From the IMG/VR virus record IMGVR_UViG_3300039210_000244, positions 1 to 64,000 of that record: 64,000 bases of DNA. One strand, written 5' to 3'. Each line of letters starts with the position of its first letter. Within the stretch, counting starts at the first letter, position 1. The notes beneath the pieces are model-generated. The model was not told the DNA's origin and ran no database searches. It worked only from the letters and a program-made list of their open reading frames with translations. The DNA is from a virus. A program made the translations under genes and the position numbers. This document shows positions 549 to 22,362 of this stretch, one piece after another.

Positions 549-905
549 GTGACAATCTCAGGAGGCCGGAGAAGCAGCTCCATTTCTTTGCCCTACACTG
601 TTGGCCGGGCTCTCACTAAAAGAGCGGCGAGCCTCGATCTGCCGCCAGCCCGCTACGTCCGTCACCTTCTTCGGAATGATCAGATTGCGCCTTATCACGG
701 ACTCGCAGACCTACTCGACCACGTGCCATCGAGTAAGTTCGCGAACGTTAGAATCCCGACCTCGTTACCTGAATACCGCCTCTCCGGAATCCTGATGCGA
801 GCCGCCGAAGAAAAACTCGACGTGTCATCTTACGTGGCCGCGCTCGTTCTGCGTGATCTGGCGATGAACGGGAAAGGCTTCACGATCCTATCGACACCGG
901 CCTGA
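549..905 (+). CDS. Small DNA-binding protein, probably two ribbon-helix-helix-like repeats
   Basis: Two similar units (ISLP...RAASLDLPPARYVRHLLRND and TSLP...RAAEEKLDVSSYVAALVLRD). Confidence 0.5.
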   Translation: MTISGGRRSSSISLPYTVGRALTKRAASLDLPPARYVRHLLRNDQIAPYHGLADLLDHVPSSKFANVRIPTSLPEYRLSGILMRAAEEKLDVSSYVAALVLRDLAMNGKGFTILSTPA

Positions 906-906
906 G

Positions 907-2652
907 TCAGCTCGCCTTCGCCAGCACACCCGGCTCATCGCAGTCGGCGAATAGGTCGGCGGGCTGATTGGTCGGAGCCGAGGGTTTAACCTCGGGAGCG
1001 GGCGTCGGCGCGCCGAGCATCAGAAGCGAGTGGGCGCCGAGCTGCAGCTGCTTGCCGAAATACTTCGGGGCGTTTTTGTCGCCGAGTTCTTCCGCGGCCT
1101 GCGCGCCGTTTTTGAGCCAGCCTTTCAGCCGGCCGTATTCGACGTTCAACGCCAGCGAGAAATCCTGGTTCATCCGCAGGTGGATGTTTCCATTCAGGAA
1201 GGCTCGCACCTCGAACAGCGTATCACTGTGTCCGATCTCTATCACGTTGTTGCAGTAGAATTCCTGACACTCGCCACTCCGCCAGATTGTACGATCCCAC
1301 CGGTTCAGCCTGCGGTCGTCTGTGTTACTGTCGAAACCGAGGTTGCGGGCAACGGTCAGCAAATCACCGAGGAAGTCACAGGCCGTCTCGTTGAGCGATT
1401 GTTCTTTGCCAGACCATTCCTTATTAACACCGCCCATGCGCTGAAGCACCATGCGATATTCGAGCGCGATGTGACTCGGCTTCTCCTCGTTGTAGCGCCA
1501 GCGGTCGTGTACGAATGGACGTTGATTTGAGACGTAGTTTCGGACGTTCGCCGACTCGACCATCGCCTCGAATGTTTCGATCAACTGCTCGTCGAGGTAG
1601 TTGTTCGCGTTCTTGAGCACCCACAGGATGACCGCGTGAATATTGCCCACCGTAAAATCAACGTGACCGTTCGCATTCAGCGTTTCGAGCATCCGGTTCC
1701 GCTTCTTGTGCGTGAGCCTATCCGTCACCTGTTTCATGTGTGCGAACAGCTCTTTCCAGTAGGTGTTGCGCAGTCCGGTCAACCGGGCTTTGAGGCAGCC
1801 TAGAATTCTTACCGGGGTCACGTCGAATTCCTTCAGGAGATCCACGTCTAGCTGCGCGACGAGATCGTAGTTTTTCCGGATATGATCCAGCTCGTCATTG
1901 TAGAGTTCGACCATGCGCTCCGGGTAGTTTGCGCCGACCACGAGTGAAGCGAACTTCGGATTTTGAACATCCTCCTGCCGGTTCTTCTTTCCCTCGGCGT
2001 CCGGGTCAACACCCGCGGCTTCGAATTTCGCTTTCAGGCCAGCGAATTGCTCGTTGAAGAAGCGATCAAAGGCGTCGTCTTTTTCGACGGCCAACTCGAT
2101 ACGGATCAGGTGGACGATCGCGCGGGCCGTGCGGTCCTCCGCGTCTTGGAAGCTAAACTTGCCGACCGTCCTATATTTCGCCTCACGGTATTTGATGGCA
2201 GCCGCGATCTCGACTGACTTCTCCCAGCGCACCGGGATGACGAGATAGACGACCTTCGATGACGACTCACGAATGATCTTCGTGCTCCATGCCTCAAACT
2301 CGGAATAGGGCGGATTGCAGAACGTTACATCCACCTGTTTTGCCACAAGCGACTGCTCGTGAAATTCGGTGCCGACGATAAAGATTGACGGGTCGAGATG
2401 CTGGCACAGCACGATCGATTTCTCGATGGCGTAGAGTTCGGAGAACCCACAGCCGCCCTGGAGCGCGCGCAGCACCTTTCCGTTGCCTGCGCCGATGTCG
2501 AGAACCGAGTTGAAGCCTCGCTTGTAGTCGTAGCGATTGGCCTCCTTGAAGGCGCTGGTATCGCGGATAAGCGCGGCAATGATCTCGTCGGTCGTTGGGT
2601 AGAATTCGAAGTCTTGATCAGACTCTTTGAGTTGTTGGATCAGTTGGTTCAT
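907..2652 (-). CDS. SAM-dependent amino-(N6A/N4C) DNA methyltransferase-like protein with large C-terminal domain (DUF4942-like)
   Basis: FYPT, VLDIGAGNG (motif I) and NPPYS (motif IV); C-terminal RAFLNGNIHLR. Confidence 0.8.
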   Translation of the reverse strand: MNQLIQQLKESDQDFEFYPTTDEIIAALIRDTSAFKEANRYDYKRGFNSVLDIGAGNGKVLRALQGGCGFSELYAIEKSIVLCQHLDPSIFIVGTEFHEQSLVAKQVDVTFCNPPYSEFEAWSTKIIRESSSKVVYLVIPVRWEKSVEIAAAIKYREAKYRTVGKFSFQDAEDRTARAIVHLIRIELAVEKDDAFDRFFNEQFAGLKAKFEAAGVDPDAEGKKNRQEDVQNPKFASLVVGANYPERMVELYNDELDHIRKNYDLVAQLDVDLLKEFDVTPVRILGCLKARLTGLRNTYWKELFAHMKQVTDRLTHKKRNRMLETLNANGHVDFTVGNIHAVILWVLKNANNYLDEQLIETFEAMVESANVRNYVSNQRPFVHDRWRYNEEKPSHIALEYRMVLQRMGGVNKEWSGKEQSLNETACDFLGDLLTVARNLGFDSNTDDRRLNRWDRTIWRSGECQEFYCNNVIEIGHSDTLFEVRAFLNGNIHLRMNQDFSLALNVEYGRLKGWLKNGAQAAEELGDKNAPKYFGKQLQLGAHSLLMLGAPTPAPEVKPSAPTNQPADLFADCDEPGVLAKAS

Positions 2653-2687
2653 GTCTTTTCGGGTTCAGGTTCGGGTTTCGGAAAAAT

Positions 2688-3584
2688 TTAAGCGGCGACG
2701 GGCTGCGTCGCTTTCCACGCCTTGATGGCCTGCGCGAGATCCGGCGGAGTCATGTTCGTGCCGTCGGGCCTAAGCGGGCGAATGTCGAAAAACTCCCACG
2801 GGTCGTCAGCGTCGCCGCCTTCAAGATGCACGGCCTTCTTCCCGATCCGCTTCACGGTATGAGTTGAGCCATTGCACATCAGCTCGACCTTTGTTCCAGG
2901 CGGACAGGTCGCGCGGAGGTAATCGCCGTAAAGGTCGGAGAGGTTTTGTGCCTTCACGCGTGACGGAGCGGTCGCGCACCTCTGGCCGTTTTCGTAGCAC
3001 TCACCGGCCTCCACTGCTTTCTGTCGGGCGATGAAAAAAGCGAGATCGGTCTTCACCTTCTGAAGTTCCACTGAGTCATCGATCAGGCGATCAGCCGCCG
3101 CGTATTGCTTCTTGCGCGTACCGGCGTTGCCGCATCCGGCGCCGAGCGGGAAGTGCGTCGCCATCGGGTCGGCTATGCCGAGTTTCTTTTCGAGCACCGC
3201 TTTGCGGGTCTCAAGTGAGTCGATTCGTTCAGAGAGTGTCATGGTCGTTTCGGGCTTCGGATTCACACCGGGCGACAGTTTGAAAATCTCACTCTGCCAA
3301 AAGCCACCGTTGTTCGTGGCGTATGCGTTGCCGTGTTTCACGCGCTCCACGAGCAAACGCATTCCAGCACGCTCCATCTTCTTTGTAACCTTCACCCACT
3401 CGCGGCGGATTATCATGGTGATGTGGGTTGATCCGCAGCACTCCCGCCAGCCCACTTCGACGGAGCCGGTTTTCGTGAGCGTTGAATACCAGCCCGCGAG
3501 GCTGTTGCTCTGGTATCCGAGCTTTGCGTTTATTTTTTGGTCGGCGACATCAATGGCCGCGACGATCGAGGCGGAGTTTATCAA
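2688..3584 (-). CDS. Hypothetical protein; start uncertain, possible internal start at 3242
   Basis: Long ORF downstream of a promoter motif; the tracked N-terminus KPEPE is a translation of the leader repeat. Confidence 0.55.
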   Translation of the reverse strand: MINSASIVAAIDVADQKINAKLGYQSNSLAGWYSTLTKTGSVEVGWRECCGSTHITMIIRREWVKVTKKMERAGMRLLVERVKHGNAYATNNGGFWQSEIFKLSPGVNPKPETTMTLSERIDSLETRKAVLEKKLGIADPMATHFPLGAGCGNAGTRKKQYAAADRLIDDSVELQKVKTDLAFFIARQKAVEAGECYENGQRCATAPSRVKAQNLSDLYGDYLRATCPPGTKVELMCNGSTHTVKRIGKKAVHLEGGDADDPWEFFDIRPLRPDGTNMTPPDLAQAIKAWKATQPVAA

Positions 3585-3610
3585 AGTAGCATTCGTTTCG
3601 GGTTCGGGTT

Positions 3611-3660
3611 TGACTGACAAGAGAAGTGAAAGGAATTACCGCATTAGTGTAAAGAGAAAA
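3611..3660 (-). promoter_or_regulatory. Repeated phage promoter motif (TCTTTACA -35-like, then GTCAGTCA and leader repeat)
   Basis: One of 8 similar intergenic copies. Confidence 0.6.
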
Positions 3661-3665
3661 ATGAA

Positions 3666-3692
3666 AAAGGCGCGAAGTTTTTTCGCGCCTTT
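3666..3692 (-). terminator. Intrinsic terminator
   Basis: AAAGGCGCGAA/TTCGCGCCTTT hairpin followed by a T-rich run on the minus strand. Confidence 0.6.
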
Positions 3693-3739
3693 GCCATGAA
3701 CCAATGTGGTTCGCTGCGTCGTAATTGAACCAATACGGT

Positions 3740-4246
3740 TCAGCGTTGGTCGCCGCTGCCAGCGATCACGCCGCGAGCCATCCGGCACTCCAGCTTCTCG
3801 ATGTTCAGGCGCATGACCTCGGCTAGCGTCGAGTCGCCGATGAGTTCCGCTTCTCCGGCTACAGCACGAAGAATCAACTCAATTTGCTCGCGCACAAACT
3901 CCGGATTCATCGGCGTGCCGTCACGGATAGTTTTCTTCGCCTTGTTGGCGATCAGCCCGGCGTGGATGACGAGCTGATCGGAAGAGCCAGCTGCCCACTG
4001 CTCGTTTCCGAGCTCGCCCAACTCGATCCCGAACAGATTAGCAAGAACCGCACAATACCAACACACGTCACCGAGCTCTCCGATTACATCCTCCTCGGTC
4101 AGAGGCGCCCCCTGACCTTGGCACTGATATTTCTCAATCAGCTCGGCCACCTCCCCACACAGGCCAAGCGTGAGGTAGGCGAGGGCTTGTTCCGGTGGGA
4201 ACTGAGCGGTTTGTAGTGCGCGTTTCTGGTATTCTTTCGGGTTCAT
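3740..4246 (-). CDS. MazG-like nucleotide pyrophosphohydrolase (duplicated helical unit)
   Basis: LGLCGEVAEL...ELGDVCWY motif; C-terminal NIEKL..R..RGVIAGSGDQR. Confidence 0.85.
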   Translation of the reverse strand: MNPKEYQKRALQTAQFPPEQALAYLTLGLCGEVAELIEKYQCQGQGAPLTEEDVIGELGDVCWYCAVLANLFGIELGELGNEQWAAGSSDQLVIHAGLIANKAKKTIRDGTPMNPEFVREQIELILRAVAGEAELIGDSTLAEVMRLNIEKLECRMARGVIAGSGDQR

Positions 4247-4279
4247 TCAGGATTCGTTTCGGGTTGGTGGTGCTGAGGA

Positions 4280-4768
4280 TCAACGGCGTTGCGGCGGAGG
4301 GCAGTGAGCAGGACTCGGCCTCGCTGCCTGATCCGATGACCGTTCATCCTCTGTCAGTACCGGGATGGCCTTACCCTTCAGCCGGCGAATGTCGAAATCC
4401 ATCGAGGCGACAGCCGCGCCAGTTTTTGCGAGCGTGCCTTTCGGCTGAACGGCGACGTGAACACATCCGCTAATGTGCATGTTGATCCCGATCGCGATTC
4501 CCTTGAATCCGCTGGCGGTGTCCGTCACCTCGGTTCCCAGCACTTCGATCGGGAAAGCTACTGCGTCGAATGCTACACCATCCATATCGAGACGATCTGG
4601 AACGACCCATACGCGATCGACCGGCTGTCCTGTCTCAGGATTGAGGCCGCGGGGTTGAAACGCATATTGGAGCCGGCGGTCGAGCTCCATGTACGCGTGA
4701 GTCACCATGCCCATCAGGCCGGTGGCAGTGTCTTTCGTGACGGAGCCGAGTTTGATGATCTTGATCAT
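4280..4768 (-). CDS. Hypothetical phage protein with internal tandem duplication
   Basis: LGSVTKDTATGLMG...QPRG repeated as LGTEVTDTASGFKG...QPKG. Confidence 0.7.
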   Translation of the reverse strand: MIKIIKLGSVTKDTATGLMGMVTHAYMELDRRLQYAFQPRGLNPETGQPVDRVWVVPDRLDMDGVAFDAVAFPIEVLGTEVTDTASGFKGIAIGINMHISGCVHVAVQPKGTLAKTGAAVASMDFDIRRLKGKAIPVLTEDERSSDQAARPSPAHCPPPQRR

Positions 4769-4813
4769 ATTTTTTTCAGGTTCAGGTTTCGGGTTTTGAT
4801 AACAGGAAAAGGT

Positions 4814-5209
4814 TCAGAGCCAAAGCCGGCGCCACCGGGCGCACCACGCTACACGCATCTGATGCTCGCGTTTGACCCGCTCCATCAACGCTTGGTTCAT
4901 CTGCAACGTTTGCTCCGCGTATCTGTCAATGTGCATTCGTTCCAGATCGCGCCTTCCGCGCGGCGTCTTGCGGCGGATATTTTTGTCCGATACAAGTGCA
5001 TTCCAGCCGTAGCATGACTCTACGGTGTAGCACGGACTACCCGCCGTTGCCCAAACGTCGATAGTTCGCGCAGGATTGTACCACCTTACTGTGCCAGATA
5101 TCACGCCATCTTCCCGGAGGAAATAGACGGCTTCGCCTTTTTTGATTGGCCACTGCTTCTGGGGTAGCGGATTGGAGATCGAAACAGGTTTCTTTGGGTC
5201 GAATTTCAT
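4814..5209 (-). CDS. Hypothetical protein
   Basis: ORF packed in the operon. Confidence 0.6.
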   Translation of the reverse strand: MKFDPKKPVSISNPLPQKQWPIKKGEAVYFLREDGVISGTVRWYNPARTIDVWATAGSPCYTVESCYGWNALVSDKNIRRKTPRGRRDLERMHIDRYAEQTLQMNQALMERVKREHQMRVAWCARWRRLWL

Positions 5210-5215
5210 GGGGAT

Positions 5216-6856
5216 TTAGACGGTGGCCGGCGTGAGTGCCGCGACCGTTTCAAAGAGTTCGCCGGGCTGGCGATTGGTCAGGACGGTCTTGTTGTTCGGC
5301 AGTGTCATGCGGCGCTGGCGCGCGCTGGTGACGACGAGCGATTTCTTTGCCCGGGTCACGGCGACGAAGAATAGTCTGCGTTCCTCCGCCATTTCCTCCG
5401 GCGTGTCGGCGGTGAAGAGTTCCGCGCCGGGAACTATCACAGAATCGAATTCCTCCCCCTTAGCCGCGTGGCAGGTCAGAATGTTCACACCTCGGATCGA
5501 TTTGGCTTCTGGCGAAGCGCGCAGGCACTCCAGCAACGCCTCAACGGTATCCGGTCGGAAGATCCGAATCCGTTCAGCCATCAGCGCGTGGCTCGCTGAG
5601 CTGACGCCGTAGCGGTGGAGATCCGCGTTGAGTGAGAGAATGACCTGCAGAGACGGGAGCGCCCAAATGGCGGCGTTTGGACACCGCTTGCGATACTCTT
5701 CGAGGTTGCGCTCGGCATCGTCCGGACTCGTGCGCTGGATGCGGGCTTGTTCGCGCGCCAGCAGTCGGGCGTTTGCCCAACTTCCGGGCGATGCGATCTG
5801 CTGCAGGATCAGGAGCAGCAAACGCCAGTCGCGCGGTTTCTTCTCGCTCTCCCGTTCGGCTACCGGGATGCCGGCCGCGTGAAGGTCTTCGCGAATTTCG
5901 TCCGCCAGCCGGTTCGTCCGGCACAGCACTGCGATTTCTGCCGGACCAACGCCGGCCGCGATCTCCATTTCGATTTCGAGGCGGACAGTCGCACGCTCGG
6001 CGTCATCGCTGCTCGTGGCGAACGTCTTCACCGTCGCCCCGTCGCCAAGCGCGCTCTCGGTCTTCTTGTCGATCCTGTCCGGATTGAGCGAGATCACGGC
6101 GTTGGCCACGTCGCAGATTTCCCGGCCGCATCGATAATTCAGGTTGAGCACGTGATGCGCGAACAGGTCCGGCATGTTCCAGAACTCCGTGACGTTCTCA
6201 GGACGTGCACCGCGAAATTTGTAAACCGACTGATCACTATCAGCCACGATCAGCAGTTGCTCGGGCTTGGCTGCCAGATAGATCGCGGCATCGACCGGTG
6301 AGCTGTCTTGATATTCGTCAACCGACCAACACGGCCACGGGTTTGATCCGCGGACCTTCATCAGCTTCAGTCCTTCGGTCAGCACCATGTCGAAGTCGAG
6401 CAAGTGCTCGCCCCGCATCCATTGGCGGTATGATCGCACAACGCGCGCGGCCTGCGTCACGCTCCGGTCATCCATCGCCAGCCCGCGAGCGGCCTCCAGC
6501 GCGGTCGCCGTGCCCTTGTAGTCCATCAGCGTCGCGTGACGGGCGAGAAATTCTCCGGCGTCCTGTTCGCCGACCATGACCCACCGCGGGTCATCGCGGC
6601 GTAGGAGCATCAACATCATCGCGTGAAGCGTGCCGACGAAGCCGGGCTTGCCGATCGTGGCGAGCAAACGCTGTTTCAGCACGCGAGCGGCGACGTTGGT
6701 GAACGTCACGAAACATTGTTGCTCGGGCTTGAATCCGATGGTTCCGAGGTGACGCGCACGCTCGACCACCACTTTGCTTTTCCCGCTCCCTGGACCGGCA
6801 ATGACCATATTCCAAGGCGCGGGCGAAATGACTGCGTTGAGTTGTTCGGTGTTCAT
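5216..6856 (-). CDS. UvrD/Rep/PcrA-family SF1A helicase
   Basis: AGPGSGKS, TFTN, DEYQD, QSVYKFRGA, NYRC, TCHAAKGEEFD and FVAVTRAK motifs. Confidence 0.93.
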   Translation of the reverse strand: MNTEQLNAVISPAPWNMVIAGPGSGKSKVVVERARHLGTIGFKPEQQCFVTFTNVAARVLKQRLLATIGKPGFVGTLHAMMLMLLRRDDPRWVMVGEQDAGEFLARHATLMDYKGTATALEAARGLAMDDRSVTQAARVVRSYRQWMRGEHLLDFDMVLTEGLKLMKVRGSNPWPCWSVDEYQDSSPVDAAIYLAAKPEQLLIVADSDQSVYKFRGARPENVTEFWNMPDLFAHHVLNLNYRCGREICDVANAVISLNPDRIDKKTESALGDGATVKTFATSSDDAERATVRLEIEMEIAAGVGPAEIAVLCRTNRLADEIREDLHAAGIPVAERESEKKPRDWRLLLLILQQIASPGSWANARLLAREQARIQRTSPDDAERNLEEYRKRCPNAAIWALPSLQVILSLNADLHRYGVSSASHALMAERIRIFRPDTVEALLECLRASPEAKSIRGVNILTCHAAKGEEFDSVIVPGAELFTADTPEEMAEERRLFFVAVTRAKKSLVVTSARQRRMTLPNNKTVLTNRQPGELFETVAALTPATV

Positions 6857-7105
6857 GGCATGAAAACGAAGACGACGCTAAGCACGTAGCTGACGCCGAG
6901 AGCGGCGCCAAAGAGCAGCGCGGTGAGGTAGGGGTGACGTTTCAAAACGATCCTTTCGTCAGGATCGCGATCGACCGGTAGAGCTGTTTGATCCGAGCCG
7001 TTTGGCGCGGCGTTTCACATTTGCGGCCTCCAAGGTGAAGCATTCGGCGGAGGCGGCTGTTCATCCAGTTCAGGCTGCGCTTGCGGCGTTTCTGGCACGG
7101 GCGGG

Positions 7106-15291: not shown

Positions 15292-16263
15292 CTAAACAAC
15301 GAACTCCAGCGTTTCAAGCGGACTTACTGCGCGCTCCAAATGCGGGTGACGATACGTCTGCGTTGTCTCCAAAGACTTGTGACCGAGAATAGCCTGCAGG
15401 TCGCGAATATCACCTTCGAAATGCGTGCCGAACCCGTGACGCAGGCAGTGCGGCGTGATTCTCGCCAAGATGCCAGCCTTGTCACAAGCGATATAAAATG
15501 CCCGCTGAATCTCGCGGTCCCGCATGTGCCAGCGAAGCATCTGGCCAGACCGAGGGTGCTCTTGCGGCCCGATCGACGGAAACAGAAACATCCACCCCAA
15601 TGAATGCGGAGCCCGTGGATATTTCTTTGCAAGTGCTCCCGGCGTTTGGATAGGCAGTGGCGTCGGACGACGTGATTGGTCCTGTTCGAAAACACGTTTG
15701 GCGTGATCGATCTGGCGGCGGATCTGCACGTGCAGTATTTCTGGCAACGGAACCACGCGATCATGGCCGTGTTTTGGCGCGCGGATCACCAGTCGGCACT
15801 CAGACATCCGAATATCTTTCAACCGAACTTCCAGCGCCTCATTCACGCGCAGCCCGCAACCGTATAGCATGAGGGCAACCAGTCGAGCGGGGATCGCGGG
15901 TGTGTCGAACAGTGCGCCTAGCAGAGCGACCGTCTCTTCACGTGACGGGCAATGACGCTCATAGACCGGCCGCTTGGCGCGAATGGCATCAACATTACCG
16001 AGCGTTTTTCCGACTGAAGCGTACAGCGCATTGATCGCCGCTAGATCGTGGTTTTGCGTGGATGCAGAAACGTTGTCCCGTGTCACTCGCTGGGAAAGGT
16101 ATGCCTCTGCGATCTGCTCCGATGTCCATTCTTTTGGACACGACAGAGCGAAATCGTAGTACAAGCCAGCGACCCGGCAGTACCCCTCCTCGGTATCGTG
16201 CTGCTGGCCCTTTAGGCGGATGCACTGAGCGAGCCGGGCGAGAACCTCACTTTTCGGTTTCAT
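15292..16263 (-). CDS. intI: Integron integrase (tyrosine recombinase with IntI-specific insertion)
   Basis: VSASTQN, LYGCGLR, K, HCLRH, LGH and TTQTY catalytic set; IntI patch PGALAKKYPRAPHSLGWMFLFPS...HPRSGQMLRWH; C-terminal SPL. Confidence 0.93.
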   Translation of the reverse strand: MKPKSEVLARLAQCIRLKGQQHDTEEGYCRVAGLYYDFALSCPKEWTSEQIAEAYLSQRVTRDNVSASTQNHDLAAINALYASVGKTLGNVDAIRAKRPVYERHCPSREETVALLGALFDTPAIPARLVALMLYGCGLRVNEALEVRLKDIRMSECRLVIRAPKHGHDRVVPLPEILHVQIRRQIDHAKRVFEQDQSRRPTPLPIQTPGALAKKYPRAPHSLGWMFLFPSIGPQEHPRSGQMLRWHMRDREIQRAFYIACDKAGILARITPHCLRHGFGTHFEGDIRDLQAILGHKSLETTQTYRHPHLERAVSPLETLEFVV

Positions 16264-16289
16264 GTTACTATGGTTGTAGTTTACTGAAT

Positions 16290-16326
16290 CCGTTATCCGC
16301 GAATTGTCGGAGAATCACTGTTCGGC
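16290..16326 (+). other. Putative attI site (core GTTCGGC at 16320-16326)
   Basis: Lies 57 bp from the intI start; core is complementary to GCCGAAC of the first attC; no attC-like hairpin to its left. Confidence 0.7.
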
Positions 16327-16327
16327 A

Positions 16328-16627
16328 TCACGGTTTGAGTGCCGCGAGTAGGCGGCGGAAGATTCCGGGGCGCTTACGGTTTTGCGCCGCTTGCGACGAC
16401 GCATAGATGGGGTTCTGGCGGATCGCGACGAAGCCGTGCGTTTCGCAGAGCTGCCCCAGGTGCTTGCCGCGTCCGCTGAGTTTCCAGCGTGTGAGCGAGC
16501 CGCAGACTGGGCAGGTTGTCGGCCACGTAGTCGGAGCCGAACTAGACGCCACACCCAATTCGGGGGCGCGTCCGTCGCAGGCTCCGGCGGGAGTCACAGG
16601 AAGAGAAGGAAGGGTTGCAGTGCTCAT
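16328..16627 (-). CDS. Cassette 1 protein, small Zn-ribbon-like (CPVC...CETH)
   Basis: ATG lies in the loop of attC1. Confidence 0.65.
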   Translation of the reverse strand: MSTATLPSLPVTPAGACDGRAPELGVASSSAPTTWPTTCPVCGSLTRWKLSGRGKHLGQLCETHGFVAIRQNPIYASSQAAQNRKRPGIFRRLLAALKP

Positions 16628-16668
16628 AAAGTTTTCAGGCCCCCGAATTGGTGATCTTGGTGTTCGGC
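16536..16668 (+). repeat. attC site 1
   Basis: GCCGAAC...CACCCAATTCGGGGGC // GCCCCCGAATTGGTG...GTTCGGC, extra base in the left arm. Confidence 0.85.
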
Positions 16669-16958
16669 AAAACGAAGACGCCCGGCCTTACGCGGACAAG
16701 CAGCCTGCGTTTCACCATTGTTGAGAGGGTCGCGCCGACGTGTTTTCCGGCGTTGCAGTAGATATTTCTCCCGATGAGTTCTACCGCGGCTTCGAGTGTG
16801 ATTTTCCCGCAGATGTGGCAGTGTTCGATTACGGCTTTTTGCTTCGGCGAGAGTCGCACCGCCGAACCAGACGCCAGAGCACAACGCGCCAGCGTGGCCC
16901 GTTTTTCGGGAGTGGCTTCAACGCTCAACATCTCCAGTTGTTCAGGCGCGTGGCTCAT
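16635..16958 (-). CDS. Cassette 2 protein, winged-HTH-like
   Basis: LSPKQKAVIE...LSTMVKRRLLVRVRPGVF; starts in attC2, ends in attC1. Confidence 0.7.
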   Translation of the reverse strand: MSHAPEQLEMLSVEATPEKRATLARCALASGSAVRLSPKQKAVIEHCHICGKITLEAAVELIGRNIYCNAGKHVGATLSTMVKRRLLVRVRPGVFVLPNTKITNSGA

Positions 16959-16972
16959 CTTAGGTGTTAGGC
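16861..16972 (+). repeat. attC site 2
   Basis: GCCGAACCAGACGCCAGAGCACAACGCGCC // GGCGCGTGGCTCATCTTAGGTGTTAGGC. Confidence 0.88.
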
Positions 16973-16976
16973 ACGA

Positions 16977-17267
16977 TCAATTGAAGCCCTCGATGTAGTG
17001 GCGCATTTGAACGGGCGAAGAAAGCAGACCGGCCATGAGCTGCATCATGCCGAGCTGGATGCCCACGTGTCCCTCGGTATCGGGGTGCTTCCCAAGGTCG
17101 CTGGCCATGCTCGCGAAGGCTTGGTTTACGTCTCCCATGTCGCAGTATTCGAGGGCGCGTTTCTTGCACCACGCTAGATGCTCGGCGCGTGAAGACGGAG
17201 CCGAACCATGTGCTAGAGAGGAACGCCCACTATCGGGGCCTTCGATTGAGTCTGTTGGATTTTTCAT
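16977..17267 (-). CDS. Cassette 3 protein, phage-type hypothetical
   Basis: RAEHLAWCKKRALEY...SDLGKHPDT; ATG in the loop of attC3. Confidence 0.75.
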   Translation of the reverse strand: MKNPTDSIEGPDSGRSSLAHGSAPSSRAEHLAWCKKRALEYCDMGDVNQAFASMASDLGKHPDTEGHVGIQLGMMQLMAGLLSSPVQMRHYIEGFN

Positions 17268-17324
17268 GTTGGTTTTGGTTACTGAGATTTTTCCCGGTGG
17301 GCGTCCCTCACCACGCCGTTCGCC
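17200..17324 (+). repeat. attC site 3
   Basis: GCCGAACCATGTGCTAGAGAGGAACGCCCAC // GTGGGCGTCCCTCACCACGCCGTTCGCC. Confidence 0.85.
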
Positions 17325-17632
17325 AAAGCTATTTTACGATGGTGCTCGCACGGCGCACTTTCAGGGCAGCAATCCGTGATCCCGATGCGGCGACCTTCCG
17401 CGTTCAGGCATGGCCCTAGCCAAACTCGTTCGCCGTCGTAGTTTGTTATCACCATGTCCACGTTCCAACTGAGTGCCTTTAGTAGCAGCTCCGCCTCTCT
17501 GGTTGTGGGCTGGTCCCTGTCGAGCGATTCCCGAAGAGAACGCAGAGGCGAACCAGCGATTACAGACAACGACCCGCACTGTCCGGCTGGCGAAGGGTCA
17601 GCGTTGGCGGGAGTTTGGATTTCAGGTTTCAT
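17279..17632 (-). CDS. Cassette 4 protein, hypothetical with Cys/His cluster (DCC...PCEHH)
   Basis: Starts in attC4, ends in attC3. Confidence 0.7.
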   Translation of the reverse strand: MKPEIQTPANADPSPAGQCGSLSVIAGSPLRSLRESLDRDQPTTREAELLLKALSWNVDMVITNYDGERVWLGPCLNAEGRRIGITDCCPESAPCEHHRKIALANGVVRDAHREKSQ

Positions 17633-17677
17633 GGTTTGAGTGGTTCGGCGGGTCGTGTCTGACTCGCGCCGTTAGCC
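17547..17677 (+). repeat. attC site 4
   Basis: GGCGAACCAGCGATTACAGACAACGACCCGC // GCGGGTCGTGTCTGACTCGCGCCGTTAGCC. Confidence 0.88.
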
Positions 17678-18015
17678 AGAAGGGCGTTTCCGAGCTTGTC
17701 GTAAGCGTAGCGCAGCTCCCGCACGGCGTCGCCAGATAGCCCGACCTTGCCTTGCTGAGCAGCATGTAGGTGGTCGAAGTCGAACCATGCGCGGGCTTCG
17801 CCTATCGTGTTACGCAGGCATGCGTCTTCGTAGCCCTCCGGAGAGCACCGCATCTTCACGCACGTCCATCCCTTGCGCCGAGCCTGTCGCCATTTCATGT
17901 CGCTGAGCCACGCATCGAAAGCGGTGATGCATTCGGCGCGGGTTGGGCGCATTAAGAAGGGGCAGTGACCGCCTTCGGGGGTCGCGATGACCCACATTAC
18001 ATAAGGGAATTTCAT
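17629..18015 (-). CDS. Cassette 5 protein, hypothetical
   Basis: Starts just outside attC5; ends in attC4 with an ATGA overlap. Confidence 0.65.
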   Translation of the reverse strand: MKFPYVMWVIATPEGGHCPFLMRPTRAECITAFDAWLSDMKWRQARRKGWTCVKMRCSPEGYEDACLRNTIGEARAWFDFDHLHAAQQGKVGLSGDAVRELRYAYDKLGNALLANGASQTRPAEPLKP

Positions 18016-18026
18016 AGATTTTCAGA

Positions 18027-18112
18027 GGCTAACCAGCCATCAGAGCCAACGCCGACAATCGTCAGGGATAGATTAGGCATTGGGGCGGCGTGGCTCACCG
18101 TGACCGTTCGGC
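18027..18112 (+). repeat. attC site 5
   Basis: GGCTAACCAGCCATCAGAGCCAACGCCG // CGGCGTGGCTCACCGTGACCGTTCGGC. Confidence 0.88.
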
Positions 18113-18468
18113 GAAGGTGAGCCGTGAGGATCGTAGGCGTTGCAGTGAGGGCATCGTTCGGTGAAGGTGCGCGGCTCCATTTCGACCGCGCCCGCGCAGT
18201 TCCAGCAGTCGCGGCAGTCTATGCTAGCGACTGCACGCGCATAAGCTGCGCGAAGAGGTTTCTCGCGGAAGTCGCGGCAGAGTTGCCGGACCTCGACTGA
18301 TTCATGCGCCAGTTCGCGCTCGAACAGATGTGCGATTTTCGCGATTCGGCGTGGGTGGTTGAGCGGAATATTGTCGCGACCGCGCGGCATTACCGGAGCC
18401 GAACCAGTTGCCAGAGCCAACGTCTCTGCCGGCCCGTCCTTTTTCGATTGGTTTTCTTGAGTGCTCAT
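18073..18468 (-). CDS. Cassette 6 protein, hypothetical with Zn-ribbon (CWNC...CPHC)
   Basis: Starts in attC6, ends in attC5. Confidence 0.7.
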   Translation of the reverse strand: MSTQENQSKKDGPAETLALATGSAPVMPRGRDNIPLNHPRRIAKIAHLFERELAHESVEVRQLCRDFREKPLRAAYARAVASIDCRDCWNCAGAVEMEPRTFTERCPHCNAYDPHGSPSPNGHGEPRRPNA

Positions 18469-18516
18469 AGTTGAGAGTTTTTCGCGGCAGAGCCGTTGCT
18501 CATCGTGGTGTTCGCA
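18398..18516 (+). repeat. attC site 6
   Basis: GCCGAACCAGTTGCCAGAGCCAACGTCTCTGCCG // CGGCAGAGCCGTTGCTCATCGTGGTGTTCGCA. Confidence 0.88.
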
Positions 18517-18905
18517 GAATCAATCACGTCGCGCATGAGTCGGTAAGTTTTCGGTGCGTTGTAAGCCTTGCACCAGTCGAGTCCGACTTCGTTCAAGAAC
18601 GCCTGCTCGATTTCATTCCAGCGGGCTATCAGCGCGGCCCACACTTTCGACGCCACGGCGATTTTCGGGAAAGCGTCACGTACTGCAGGCGCAGCCTTGA
18701 GCAGCAGCAGGCAGCGGTTCAGGTCGTCGGGGTCGTGTGGGTAGTTGATGCGTTCCGGCGTTGAGCCGAGCGCGATCATGGCCATCGTTTTTGACGAGAG
18801 GCCGACGCGCCCGTTTGCGAGCCAGTCTAAGACACGCGAACCAGTCGCGACAGACAACGATCCGCCACTGTCCGTTTTCGTGGAGTTTTCAGTTGGATTA
18901 TTCAT
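18465..18905 (-). CDS. Cassette 7 protein, phage-type hypothetical
   Basis: WLANGRVGLSSKTMA...PHDPDDLNRCLLLL; starts in attC7, ends in attC6 (ATGA overlap). Confidence 0.75.
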   Translation of the reverse strand: MNNPTENSTKTDSGGSLSVATGSRVLDWLANGRVGLSSKTMAMIALGSTPERINYPHDPDDLNRCLLLLKAAPAVRDAFPKIAVASKVWAALIARWNEIEQAFLNEVGLDWCKAYNAPKTYRLMRDVIDSANTTMSNGSAAKNSQL

Positions 18906-18948
18906 GTTTGGAAATTTGGGCGGATCGCGTCTGCCCTAGGTGTTAGGC
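18835..18948 (+). repeat. attC site 7
   Basis: CGCGAACCAGTCGCGACAGACAACGATCCGCC // GGCGGATCGCGTCTGCCCTAGGTGTTAGGC. Confidence 0.88.
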
Positions 18949-19427
18949 TTTCTTTCGCTTGGGCAAAACGGGGTCATTTCATGCACGCTAAGAGCCTCCG
19001 TCCGTGGTTTGCCGCGAATCATTCCGCAGGACCACACCGAAGCATCTCCCTCGGGGTCGAGTTGTTCGATAAGCCAGCAAAGGCCTTTCGCAGCCTTCAC
19101 AGCACGCGCGTCGCGACGGGCCTGCATCGCGGCTTTCTTTTCGAGCCGATCGCTCTCGTCTTGCGCCATTTTGGCCAGCATCTCAGAGACGCCTAGGGCG
19201 AAGATCGCGGCCTGTGCCGGGAAGTCCTTCCCGAGTTTTGCGAGGTGTTCCCATGCCTTTTTTGGCTGCTCACCGTAATAGAGCTTGGTCCACATCGGAT
19301 GATCCTTCGTTTTCGAGATCGAATCCAGGCTGGCGATATTGTGCTGCGCCATGATGGCCGCGCGTTCATCGTCGGACATTGGGATCTCGCAGCGGTGTTC
19401 AAGCAGGAGTTTTGACAGGGTGCTCAT
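18936..19427 (-). CDS. Hypothetical protein, first gene of the operon reading into the array (no attC of its own seen)
   Basis: Follows promoter and leader repeat; ends KPNT* inside attC7. Confidence 0.7.
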   Translation of the reverse strand: MSTLSKLLLEHRCEIPMSDDERAAIMAQHNIASLDSISKTKDHPMWTKLYYGEQPKKAWEHLAKLGKDFPAQAAIFALGVSEMLAKMAQDESDRLEKKAAMQARRDARAVKAAKGLCWLIEQLDPEGDASVWSCGMIRGKPRTEALSVHEMTPFCPSERKPNT

Positions 19428-19447
19428 GTCGTTTCGGGTTCGGGTTA

Positions 19448-19500
19448 AACTGACTACCCGAATAAACTATTCGAACGCACGATAAAAGTAAAGATAAAAA
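19448..19500 (-). promoter_or_regulatory. Repeated phage promoter motif, likely driving the cassette array and intI
   Basis: TTTACT-N17-TAGTTT, then GTAGTCAG and AACCCGAACCCGAA leader. Confidence 0.65.
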
Positions 19501-19522
19501 AGACGGTTTGTTTTGTAAATCT

Positions 19523-20014
19523 CTACGCTGATGCCTTGAAAAACCCAAGCATCCCGGTGCACGCGACGAACGGCAGCGGCCGGATCTCGTCTAGGACATA
19601 GCCGTATTCGCCCATGAACCACGGGCTGGAACTTCCAGTAACGCATGCGCCGAGCTTCGCCATGCCGGTGATCCCGCCGAGCTCATAGCTGTCGAACCGT
19701 TTCGACGCGAACACGTCCGCCACCGACTGTGGCAGCCGGCCGAGACCGATGCCGCGTTGAATCACCTCCATCGCGCAGTCGAATGCTTCGGCGGTCATCT
19801 TCGCTTTCGAGGCATGAACGAGAAACCATGTCCGCCGGTGCGACCGCCGGCTTCGGTTCTCGATGTTTTTGCACTCCTGCTTGCGCTTGTCCGGATCGGT
19901 GAGATCAGGCCGCGTGATCAGGAACGCCCACGGCTGCTTAATAGCGAGGGCAGGGAAGAGGCGCATGTAATGGCGAGTGTCTGAGTCGGTCATGGCTTTA
20001 ACGTTCGCGTTCAT
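19523..20014 (-). CDS. ASCH/PUA-domain protein
   Basis: ALAIKQPWAFLI...KNIENRS...LVHASK...GMLGFF. Confidence 0.85.
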   Translation of the reverse strand: MNANVKAMTDSDTRHYMRLFPALAIKQPWAFLITRPDLTDPDKRKQECKNIENRSRRSHRRTWFLVHASKAKMTAEAFDCAMEVIQRGIGLGRLPQSVADVFASKRFDSYELGGITGMAKLGACVTGSSSPWFMGEYGYVLDEIRPLPFVACTGMLGFFKASA

Positions 20015-21039
20015 GCTGTCGGGTAGCCGTTGTGTTCGACGCCATCGAGCAATCGGCCGGCAGCGGCTTTGCCGACTCGCGCCATGTATGTCTGCGTTTT
20101 GTCCATGTTCTGAAACAGATACCACTCCGGATTGATGGGGCACTTCGTTGATAGGTCGTGCGTGAATTCTACTCGGTTGTCATCGAGGACTTTCACGGGC
20201 GCCCACTCTCCCCATTGTTTATAAAGAAAAGGCACGCCCGCAGCAGAGCACTGATTGCGCAGCGATATTGCCCATGTCGGATGCATCGGACGCGCGTTAG
20301 GTCCAGACTCGCCGCCGCAAATTACCCAATGGATTCCAGTGAGGGCTTTTTTCCCAAGCTGCGCAACCGCGTCGGAACGCTTCGTTACGTTCGAGAATTC
20401 CAGCGGCCCGAGCAACGGCTCGCACGAAAGAAATCGCACGACGGCCGGAATTGCGAGCAGCGATGGGATTCGCTCGTCGGCACGTTGCCGGTCTTCGACT
20501 GACGTTCCGATCCACACGTTAGCGGGCGGCTCAGGATCGACATTTATGAGTGCACCATCAGCCTTCTGGCCGATCCATGCGAAAATCCAGTTCTCAAGAT
20601 CCATCCGACCTACGCAGCTCTCCATCGCTGCGAGCAAACGCGGACGGAAATTCTCCGGACGCTTCGTGAGCAGCAGCCAATCGAGGTGCTGGCATTTGCG
20701 GATGAGATCAAGCAAGTCAGCCAGCCAATCAAGCGGAACCTCGTCGTCCAACCAGTCGGAGAGCGATGCGCAGAAGACGCGTGGACGACGTTTTTTCGCG
20801 TCTCCCTTTTCAGCCCACCGAAGGCAGTCGGCTTCGGCGTTTCGACTCCATCGGATAGGCTCTTTCCAATTCGCAGCGGATGTGCGCGAGCGCGGATTGC
20901 CCTTGCCCCATTTTACGCGGCCATAGCGCGCGTCCATCAGCGTTTCGGCATAGCAGTGCGCACAGCCGGGTGAAACCTTTGTGCAACCGATCCACGGATT
21001 AAACGTGTGATCGGTCCACTCGATTTTTGAGTTTTCCAT
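20011..21039 (-). CDS. Phage Gp37/Gp68 (DUF5131) family protein
   Basis: SKIEWTDHTFNPWIGCTKVSPGCAHCYA, LLTKRPEN, RFLSCEPLLG, WVICGGESG, KQWGEW. Confidence 0.93.
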   Translation of the reverse strand: MENSKIEWTDHTFNPWIGCTKVSPGCAHCYAETLMDARYGRVKWGKGNPRSRTSAANWKEPIRWSRNAEADCLRWAEKGDAKKRRPRVFCASLSDWLDDEVPLDWLADLLDLIRKCQHLDWLLLTKRPENFRPRLLAAMESCVGRMDLENWIFAWIGQKADGALINVDPEPPANVWIGTSVEDRQRADERIPSLLAIPAVVRFLSCEPLLGPLEFSNVTKRSDAVAQLGKKALTGIHWVICGGESGPNARPMHPTWAISLRNQCSAAGVPFLYKQWGEWAPVKVLDDNRVEFTHDLSTKCPINPEWYLFQNMDKTQTYMARVGKAAAGRLLDGVEHNGYPTA

Positions 21040-21935: not shown

Positions 21936-22292
21936 TCACTTGATGACCTCGATTATCATGGTACCGCGAATCTCCACGAGCAGGCCGGTTTTCTCGTCCT
22001 CGAAGTAGCAGCCGTCACCCTGCACGTCGGTCACGGCTCCGGTTGTCGTCCAAGATTCGATCGGATTTCCGCTGTTTCCGTAGAGCGTGATCTTGTGCCG
22101 CTTTCCCAGCGCATTGAAGGACGCCACTTCCGCGTCAGTGCAGGCAGCGAGAAAGAGCAGAGCCAAACCAGCCACTAGAGCCAACGCCCACAGTCGGGGG
22201 CTTCGGCGATTGGCGGCGCGGATGATTCGGCTGTAAGCCATCCTCAGTTCGGGGATGGCGGACACTGCAACTGTCATGTTTTTCGTGCTCAT
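21936..22292 (-). CDS. Putative lipoprotein
   Basis: Hydrophobic stretch ending in LAAC lipobox. Confidence 0.6.
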   Translation of the reverse strand: MSTKNMTVAVSAIPELRMAYSRIIRAANRRSPRLWALALVAGLALLFLAACTDAEVASFNALGKRHKITLYGNSGNPIESWTTTGAVTDVQGDGCYFEDEKTGLLVEIRGTMIIEVIK

Positions 22293-22311
22293 GTCGTTTC
22301 GGGTTCTGGTT

Positions 22312-22362
22312 GCTGACTGACACGAACAAACTACCCGTTACATCGTTAGATGTAAATATAAT
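22312..22362 (-). promoter_or_regulatory. Repeated phage promoter motif
   Basis: TTTACA-N17-TAGTTT then GTCAGTCA. Confidence 0.6.

Follow-up and report, generated by a model that had tools for sequence, protein, structure and literature searches.

A phage-borne integron that probably carries its cassette genes in reverse, with starts and stops inside attC sites

The DNA analyzed here, which is from a soil phage and is referred to as the window, is a stretch of 64,000 nucleotides (nt) that makes up the first 64 kb of the IMG/VR virus record IMGVR_UViG_3300039210_000244 (84,461 bp, with an estimated completeness of 88%). It contains a complete integron, which consists of an integron integrase gene (intI), an attI core and seven attC sites, and whose array ends at position 18948. 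We give a probability of roughly three in four to the reading that this integron is real, complete and phage-borne, that its host is a member of the Verrucomicrobiota of Opitutales type, and that its recombination side is classical while its cassettes are reversed. All seven cassette open reading frames (ORFs) lie on the minus strand, which we take to be the attC sites' bottom strand; most of them begin inside their own attC and end inside that of their neighbor. The phage genes of the record, which include helicases, a metallophosphoesterase, and tail and head proteins, are also almost all on the minus strand.

The integrase gene (15292-16263, minus strand) encodes 323 amino acids (aa), and was assigned on the basis of its match to TIGR02249, its alignment with the structure 2A3V, and its catalytic residues. 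TIGR02249 is by far the best family for this protein, with positions 2-313 of 315 matched at 212.7 bits. The best solved relative is VchIntIA (2A3V), and the alignment with it is unbroken across the IntI-specific segment ALAKKYP...W..LFPS. The catalytic residues R139, K164, H272, R275, H295 and Y304 are invariant in 40 relatives. The attI region (16264-16326, plus strand) is predicted, together with its function, from its position and from its core sequence, GTTCGGC at 16320-16326, which is 57 nt from the intI start and to which the R'' box of attC1 is complementary.

Three independent lines agree on the strand that is predicted to recombine. First, an alignment of the arms shows, in all seven attC sites, more bases from the R box to the inner stem in the plus-strand left arm than in the right one, and in folds of the minus strand the bulges are in the 3' arm, facing the 5' arm that contains AAC. 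According to Nivina et al. 2016 (PMC5027507), a bottom strand that recombines is recognized by extrahelical bases on the arm opposite AAC, and by this rule the minus strand would be the recombining bottom strand and the plus strand the attC top strand. A preliminary description of this DNA had likewise placed the extra bases in the plus-strand left arms, with the attC orientation plus and every ORF minus, and the folds and arm alignments bear this out. Second, the left cores of attC2, 4, 5, 6 and 7 are complementary to the TTxxxx of the previous right core, and not to that of their own site. The same is seen in related arrays: the R' box whose four variable bases are complementary to R'' is the downstream one in 85 cases and the site's own in 6, with 15 ties (p = 6e-19). 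We regard this complementarity, which places the cassette boundaries at the R' core, as the footprint of IntI crossovers at R', between G and TT. Third, covariance models built from the attC sites of the window and searched in related loci gave 193 attC sites in 50 sources (186 beyond the seven of the window), and all of these are on the strand opposite intI. A palindrome scanner of our own found six of the seven window sites, but its false matches were at the level of shuffled controls, and the covariance models were used instead.

As read from the sequence, then, the platform is laid out as in classical integrons, and since it is complete (intI plus attI), the reversal is placed in the relation of gene to attC rather than in the integrase. 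That the genes themselves are on the minus strand is supported by the relatives found for the minus-strand ORF7 (91 proteins) and ORF4 (168 proteins), in addition to the minus-strand bias of the phage genes. We also considered the cassettes as plus-strand genes, and rejected this because the homologues all belong to minus-strand ORFs.

The attC sites and the cassette ORFs of the window interlock (attC coordinates run from the first base of R'' to the last base of R', with plus as the top strand; all the genes named here are on the minus strand). In the direction of the genes, an upstream phage gene of 163 aa (18936-19427) runs into attC7 (18835-18948, 114 nt) and stops there, at 18936, after KPNT; the ATG of ORF7 (18905) is inside the same site. 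ORF7 (18465-18905, 146 aa) ends in attC6 (18398-18516, 119 nt), where its stop overlaps the ATG of ORF6 (18468) in the sequence ATGA at 18465-18468. ORF6 (18073-18468, 131 aa), which has a weak zinc-ribbon match, stops at 18073 inside attC5 (18027-18112). This is the short site, of 86 nt; it contains no internal start, and ORF5 (17629-18015, 128 aa) starts 12 nt outside it. The stop of ORF5 again overlaps a start, that of ORF4 (17632), in the ATGA at 17629-17632 within attC4 (17547-17677, 131 nt). ORF4 (17279-17632, 117 aa) stops at 17279 inside attC3 (17200-17324, 125 nt), which also contains the ATG of ORF3 (17267). ORF3 (16977-17267, 96 aa) ends at a stop of its own, 4 nt ahead of the core in attC2 (16861-16972, 112 nt), and this site contains the ATG of ORF2 (16958). 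ORF2 (16635-16958, 107 aa) stops at 16635 inside attC1 (16536-16668, 133 nt), in which the ATG of ORF1 (16627) is also found. Finally, ORF1 (16328-16627, 99 aa), all of whose in-frame start codons are within attC1, likewise ends at a stop of its own, at a distance of 1 nt from the core of attI. As a separate observation, a second core-like GTTCGGC is present at 17643-17649, in the loop of attC4 and directly upstream (on the minus strand) of the ORF4 ATG; it could be what is left of a fused site, or else a secondary site of crossover.

Six of the seven ORFs (all but ORF5) have their ATG in the unpaired loop of their own attC, and all six read the left core as xGT TCG, which gives the peptides VASSSA, LASGSA, LAHGSA, VIAGSP, LATGSA and VATGSR. 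At the other end, ORF2, 4, 5, 6 and 7, like the upstream gene, lack a stop of their own; in each of them the AAC at the crossover is read as Asn, and the stop is 2 to 15 codons past it, in the neighboring attC. A stop in the AAC frame is also present where no gene currently uses it, both in attC2 (after PNT) and on the minus strand of attI (after PNSDSPTIRG, 30 nt before the intI ATG). These starts, left-core peptides, Asn-crossing tails, unused stops and ATGA overlaps had all been pointed out in the preliminary description, and each was found at the position given there, the tails exactly as listed. If the frames were independent, the chance of six of six falling in one frame would be about 0.004 per core. 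The sites of one array are related to each other, however, so that comparison with 38 other arrays is the stronger evidence.

The nearest arrays compared have integrases 56-58% identical to the intI of the window and are from two contigs of Opitutales metagenome-assembled genomes (MAGs); for many IMG/VR contigs and Verrucomicrobiota MAGs the identity is 35-46%. Integrase proteins 65-87% identical to intI were also found, with their arrays outside the comparison, and the metagenome relatives among the matches listed have at most 45% identity and belong to loci left out of the statistics. A scan of viral contigs with a single protein gave no match. In this set, attC sites of 80 nt or more are termed long, and a site was counted as holding a start if a bottom-strand ATG within it opens an ORF that extends at least 40 codons past R''. 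This is the case for 106 of 150 long sites, as compared to 17 for the mirror control on the top strand, and for only 5 of 41 short sites (mirror control, 3 of 41). The ATG is at a median of 65 nt before R'', in a context that is A-rich and poor in G and T.

The stops follow a similarly regular pattern. Among 81 bottom-strand ORFs for which the next attC is known, 56 stop within that site, 23 stop earlier on their own, and 2 read through. The 56 that stop in the next attC comprise 42 with AAC in frame, a single one in another frame, 11 that stop at the TAA of YTAAC, and 2 for which the core could not be placed. Within the long sites, the AAC-frame stop is no more than 12 nt from the site's ATG, or overlaps it, in 69 of 102 cases (18 and 9 for the other two frames), and the overlap is an ATGA in 40 of the 102. 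Predicted starts and stops of this kind, and their conservation, are thus seen across the 38 related arrays. The proposal that attC is a portable stop-and-restart module, also part of the preliminary description, is supported by these counts (42 versus 1 in frame; 69 versus 18 and 9 beside the ATG). An accompanying suggestion was to compare frame conservation in related arrays at both cores with chance; the frame is conserved at the right core, and at the left core conservation is found only within lineages. The TAA in the YTAAC right core, used by 11 reversed ORFs, is wholly on the cassette's own side of the crossover between AA and C, and gives a second route to a reversed cassette that is complete in itself.

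Reversed genes are associated with the long sites, within which they start; such sites predominate in viral contigs (109 long versus 5 short) and are scattered in chromosomal arrays. In the chromosomal arrays of Opitutaceae (L085 and L092, for example), short attC sites of about 60 nt go with top-strand genes. A strand call from stop-free stretches, in which most cassettes are ambiguous in this GC-rich DNA and which is used as weak support only, gave 21 bottom versus 6 top for long sites and 2 versus 10 for short ones, counting clear cases. In a quick tree of the integrases, the chromosomal short-site arrays nest among the phage-borne reversed arrays. Three Verrucomicrobiota MAG contigs (L085, L086 and L087; 57-711 kb) contain both kinds, with short sites of about 60 nt and top-strand genes mixed with long sites of 114-135 nt and reversed genes; examples of the latter are attC 5628-5741 with ORF 5691-5981 in L085, and attC 4711-4844 with ORF 4788-5222 in L087. 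This mixture suggests a cassette pool common to phage and host. Another contig, L083, from a Candidatus Didemnitutus MAG, has ParB-like, phrog_2045, primase-like and further phage-type genes at 559-7034, just upstream of its array, and the counterpart of this neighborhood in the window is phrog_2045 at 20011-21039, which suggests that L083 is a related phage or prophage with its integron at the same position. The cassettes of the two arrays are wholly different.

Comparison of the cassette proteins with their homologues shows a constant core with variable ends. The phrog_1229 profile, which describes a phage family, covers only residues 23-131 of ORF7. In the alignment, plain ORF7 relatives start, with MKDK(I/V)L.W, at a distance of four or five residues ahead of the conserved core, and finish where the core does. 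ORF7 of the window and its closest relatives have a variable leader of 17-24 residues that ends in ..VATGS, ..VIAGS or ..LAHGS, and differing tails after ..SAN. The AlphaFold (AF2) model of ORF7 has block means of 89-98 in the core, 61-69 for residues 1-20, and 72-83 for the tail (131-146). Similarly, the relatives of ORF4 match over approximately residues 40-103, its family core, and several have ..GSPL leaders. An unrelated protein of 136 aa, P0329, is 84% identical to ORF4 over the first 32 residues only, that is, over those encoded by attC. Judging from both family alignments, homologues outside cassettes lack the two attC-encoded extensions, which answers the question, raised in the preliminary description, of whether they are without the xxGS N-terminal and (P/A)N C-terminal additions. 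A tblastn search with eight window proteins against all 240 related loci gave no match, so that no cassette protein of the window has a relative there. Searches of Pfam, NCBIfam and PHROGs gave no named function for the cargo, with the exceptions of phrog_1229 (function unknown) and the weak zinc ribbon of ORF6.

These features can be combined in a scheme of how such an array might work. On the bottom strand, the 5' arm of a long attC would carry the frame of the incoming gene from the in-frame Asn (AAC, at the crossover) to its stop. The loop, which is A/C-rich and unpaired, would hold this stop and the adjoining or overlapping ATG of the site's own cassette, and the 3' arm together with the left core would encode approximately 20-30 N-terminal residues (..LAxGSA..) in frame with the cargo. 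Recombination would take place on the bottom strand, once folded, between AA and C in the R' box. As an excised circle, a cassette would be an almost closed reading frame, with its end in the cassette's own attC; in the array, the end would be in the attC of the neighbor. Expression would be from a transcript that begins in the phage promoter region upstream of 19427 (at about 19.5 kb) and continues through the upstream gene and the seven cassettes into intI. The ribosome of the incoming gene would read the 5' arm, opening the hairpin, and would terminate in the loop beside the cassette's ATG, where it could reinitiate. Because of the common attC layout, cassettes could be reordered and each gene would still be terminated and restarted, with only the short tail after the Asn being exchanged. 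The candidate start of the transcript for the array and intI is a promoter-like site at 19491-19519 (minus strand; TTTACA and TATCTT, separated by 17 nt), which is at a dip in GC content in the AT-rich gap upstream of the 18936-19427 gene. A consensus scan found no promoter-like sites in the cassettes, and the sole plus-strand site of this type, located some 800 nt into intI, does not exceed chance expectation.

Several observations weigh against an integron with reversed cassettes that start and stop in attC, and are considered here along with the explanations that some of them would favor. The intI score of 212.7 bits is below the TIGR02249 curated cut-off of 265. The promoter-like site is a consensus match, and a weak one, and the transcribed strand, the start sites and the translational coupling are what we infer from the arrangement of the genes. 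In the related arrays, the 23 of 81 ORFs with their own earlier stop depart from the pattern, as do the 20 of 102 long sites with no AAC-frame stop before the ATG. The left-core frame is divided 53, 26 and 22 among the three frames and is mixed in the more distant arrays, being near-uniform only in the window (6/6), L002 (9/11) and L083 (5/6). In addition, attC sites within one array are kin and much alike, and all counts across related arrays are to this extent not fully independent. The last two points would be accounted for if the frames and stop positions had been inherited by descent from a common ancestral attC, rather than selected for interchangeable cassettes. We consider this rather unlikely, although it survives better than the other alternatives. 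The in-frame AAC and the stop beside the ATG hold in arrays whose integrases are only 35-58% identical to that of the window. The AAC frame belongs to the end of the cargo, and not to attC, so that each cassette must have met the rule separately. Furthermore, the AAC-frame stop is kept in 15 of 28 sites that are unused by any incoming ORF, as compared to a background of 9-18% in the other frames. As for the left core, its frame is set inside each attC, and mixed frames there consequently leave the portability of cassettes unaffected.

It might alternatively be argued that the cassette genes start downstream of attC, in which case the attC-encoded N-termini would be an artefact of choosing the longest ORF and attC a mere 5' leader. 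Alternative starts exist directly past attC for ORF2 (GTG at codon 34) and ORF6 (ATG at codon 27), and these also count against the reversed arrangement as we describe it. The attC-encoded segment of ORF7 is modeled with lower confidence than its core, and database protein predictions, which take the longest ORF, prove nothing with respect to starts. Nevertheless, this explanation has little probability in our view. ORF1 is without an in-frame start outside attC1, and in ORF3, ORF4 and ORF7 the next in-frame start is at codon 44, 58 and 41, respectively, which is within the conserved core or past it; for these four genes there is no in-frame start between attC and the core. In ORF7, the invariant residues W28 to S38 precede the next in-frame Met (codon 41), so that translation must begin in attC for the conserved core to be made. 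The excess of ATG codons, in an A-rich unpaired context, over the mirror strand of long sites also argues against a mere leader, as does the stop of the incoming gene, which is beside the attC ATG far more often than in the control frames.

The array could also be a fossil, i.e., a set of fixed phage early genes whose attC hairpins are only intergenic RNA structures (for stability or coupling) that the integrase no longer moves, and this would fit with the one-way phage operon in which all of the cassettes are located and with the contigs from four DNA runs (two of them perhaps from the source sample) of one soil study, in which the letters of the array are identical and no joints are found at any attC (thus, no direct sign of recent rearrangement in this phage, which is a further point against our reading), but it is similarly improbable, because intI is undamaged and retains its catalytic residues, the match of each core to the end of its own cassette persists, related phages that have the array in the same place differ fully in cargo, and the same attC-encoded leader is found on unrelated cargo (P0329). 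Excision and insertion of cassettes by this IntI would be in keeping with the hybrid cores and the turnover of cargo, and recombination may continue at the present day.

Beyond the reversed integron of the window itself, a broader and more tentative proposal, to which we give somewhat less than even odds, is that Verrucomicrobiota phages run a separate functional form of integron, with cassettes that are approximately circular reading frames. In such a form, attC would have several roles, as the recombination site, as the tail and terminator of the previous gene, and as the leader and N-terminus of its own gene. The array would form the last part of a phage operon, with intI at its end, and be expressed as such. 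The strand that recombines, the bottom one, would be the non-template strand, which transcription would therefore expose, and cassette shuffling would in this way be tied to expression. The mixed arrays on host chromosomes (short normal sites together with long reversed ones) would serve as a silent store of phage cassettes.

In the textbook integron, strand-selective insertion points promoterless genes away from a promoter at the integrase end. The integron of the window is like classical integrons (class 1 mobile integrons and sedentary chromosomal ones, e.g., that of Vibrio cholerae, with VchIntIA, 2A3V) in that it has an IntI with the specific segment and an attI beside the 5' end of intI; its attC sites have the R''-L''-L'-R' structure, with extra bases opposite the bottom-strand AAC arm, a crossover at R', and a top strand that diverges from intI. 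It is unlike them in that the genes are on the bottom strand and point at intI, so that a promoter at intI/attI (Pc) cannot express them; in the classical definition, Pc drives genes that have no promoter and are on the attC top strand, whereas seven of seven genes here are on the bottom strand. It also differs in that the start codon and about 20-30 codons are in attC, that most genes end in the attC of their neighbor, and that the carrier is a phage. Clusters of attC without integrase (CALINs) are ruled out by the intact intI, 57 nt from the attI core.

Among chromosomal integrons, cassettes in reverse orientation are mostly toxin-antitoxin cassettes with their own promoters. A few promoter-bearing exceptions among cassettes are mentioned in PMC5027507. 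The window resembles the reverse-oriented cassettes in the strand of the gene, which is the reverse of the normal one with respect to attC. However, they are exceptions with their own promoter, start and stop, whereas in the window all cassettes are reversed and the attC sites would supply starts and stops; a family profile search found no toxin-antitoxin match among the window cassettes. In the inverted integron-integrase group, of the Treponema denticola type (PMC3607928, PMC4889954), intI and the cassette genes share a strand, as they do here, but in our set the relation of intI to attC is normal in all 193 sites, and it is the relation of gene to attC that is reversed. We therefore rejected a reading of the Treponema type, intI being opposite the attC top strand in the window and in all 49 related sources.

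In class 1 integrons, short ORFs, namely ORF-11 in attI1 and others in attC sites, have been proposed to aid translation of the next cassette by termination and reinitiation, and attC hairpins in mRNA are described as barriers that ribosomes can open (PMC8876359). The idea proposed here would be the same by analogy, namely that a frame which ends in or near the recombination site helps the next gene. These short ORFs are, however, separate and on the top strand, whereas in the window it is the genes that traverse attC, on the bottom strand, and parts of both proteins would be encoded in attC. With respect to phages as carriers, Qi et al. 2023 (PMC9892861) covered 10,705 phage genomes and, in the passages found by term search, report three complete integrons, described as fragments of host or class 1 integrons. 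These integrons and the CALINs of that study are similar to the window insofar as integron parts are carried by phages, and the same passages contain no mention of reversed gene polarity or coding attC sites. A full-text search of the integron literature found no bottom-strand cassettes that start in attC and end in the attC of a neighbor, consistent with the preliminary description, according to which this architecture is not known from classical integrons.

In the arrangement described here, the recombination machinery is unchanged and the expression logic would be reversed, with genes directed toward the integrase, new cassettes in promoter-distal positions, and a recombination site that is translated. 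A structured DNA recombination site could at once encode parts of two proteins and a junction of stop and start, which is a strong joint constraint. Genes without a native start and stop, fused in frame to attC on both sides, offer a route to the question of cassette origin. Phages appear to have a pool of exchangeable early genes of their own, in overlap with the chromosomal arrays of hosts. In practical terms, such arrays could be described wrongly by integron annotation tools that look for genes on the top strand.

Two other features of the window are found outside of the array. An attC-like match at 22162-22238 (plus strand) scores 36.9 bits with covariance model R2 and 23.4 bits with model R1. 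Only its left arm is convincing (GCCAAAC, then ..GAGCCAACG..), and its right end is without a GTT core. The match falls within the lipoprotein-type signal-peptide part of an ORF at 21936-22292 on the minus strand (..WALALVAGLALLFLAAC), and may be due to chance or may be the remnant of an attC arm reused as coding sequence. In addition, an identical 17-nt start-codon leader (catgtcgtttcgggttc, plus strand) is present at 19423-19439 and 22290-22306, before two minus-strand genes. One contig of run X1 matches the window as far as 19446, after which its letters are those of 22312-22341; it is either a minor variant without the approximately 2.9 kb between the 17-nt repeats or a mere partial fit through the repeat.

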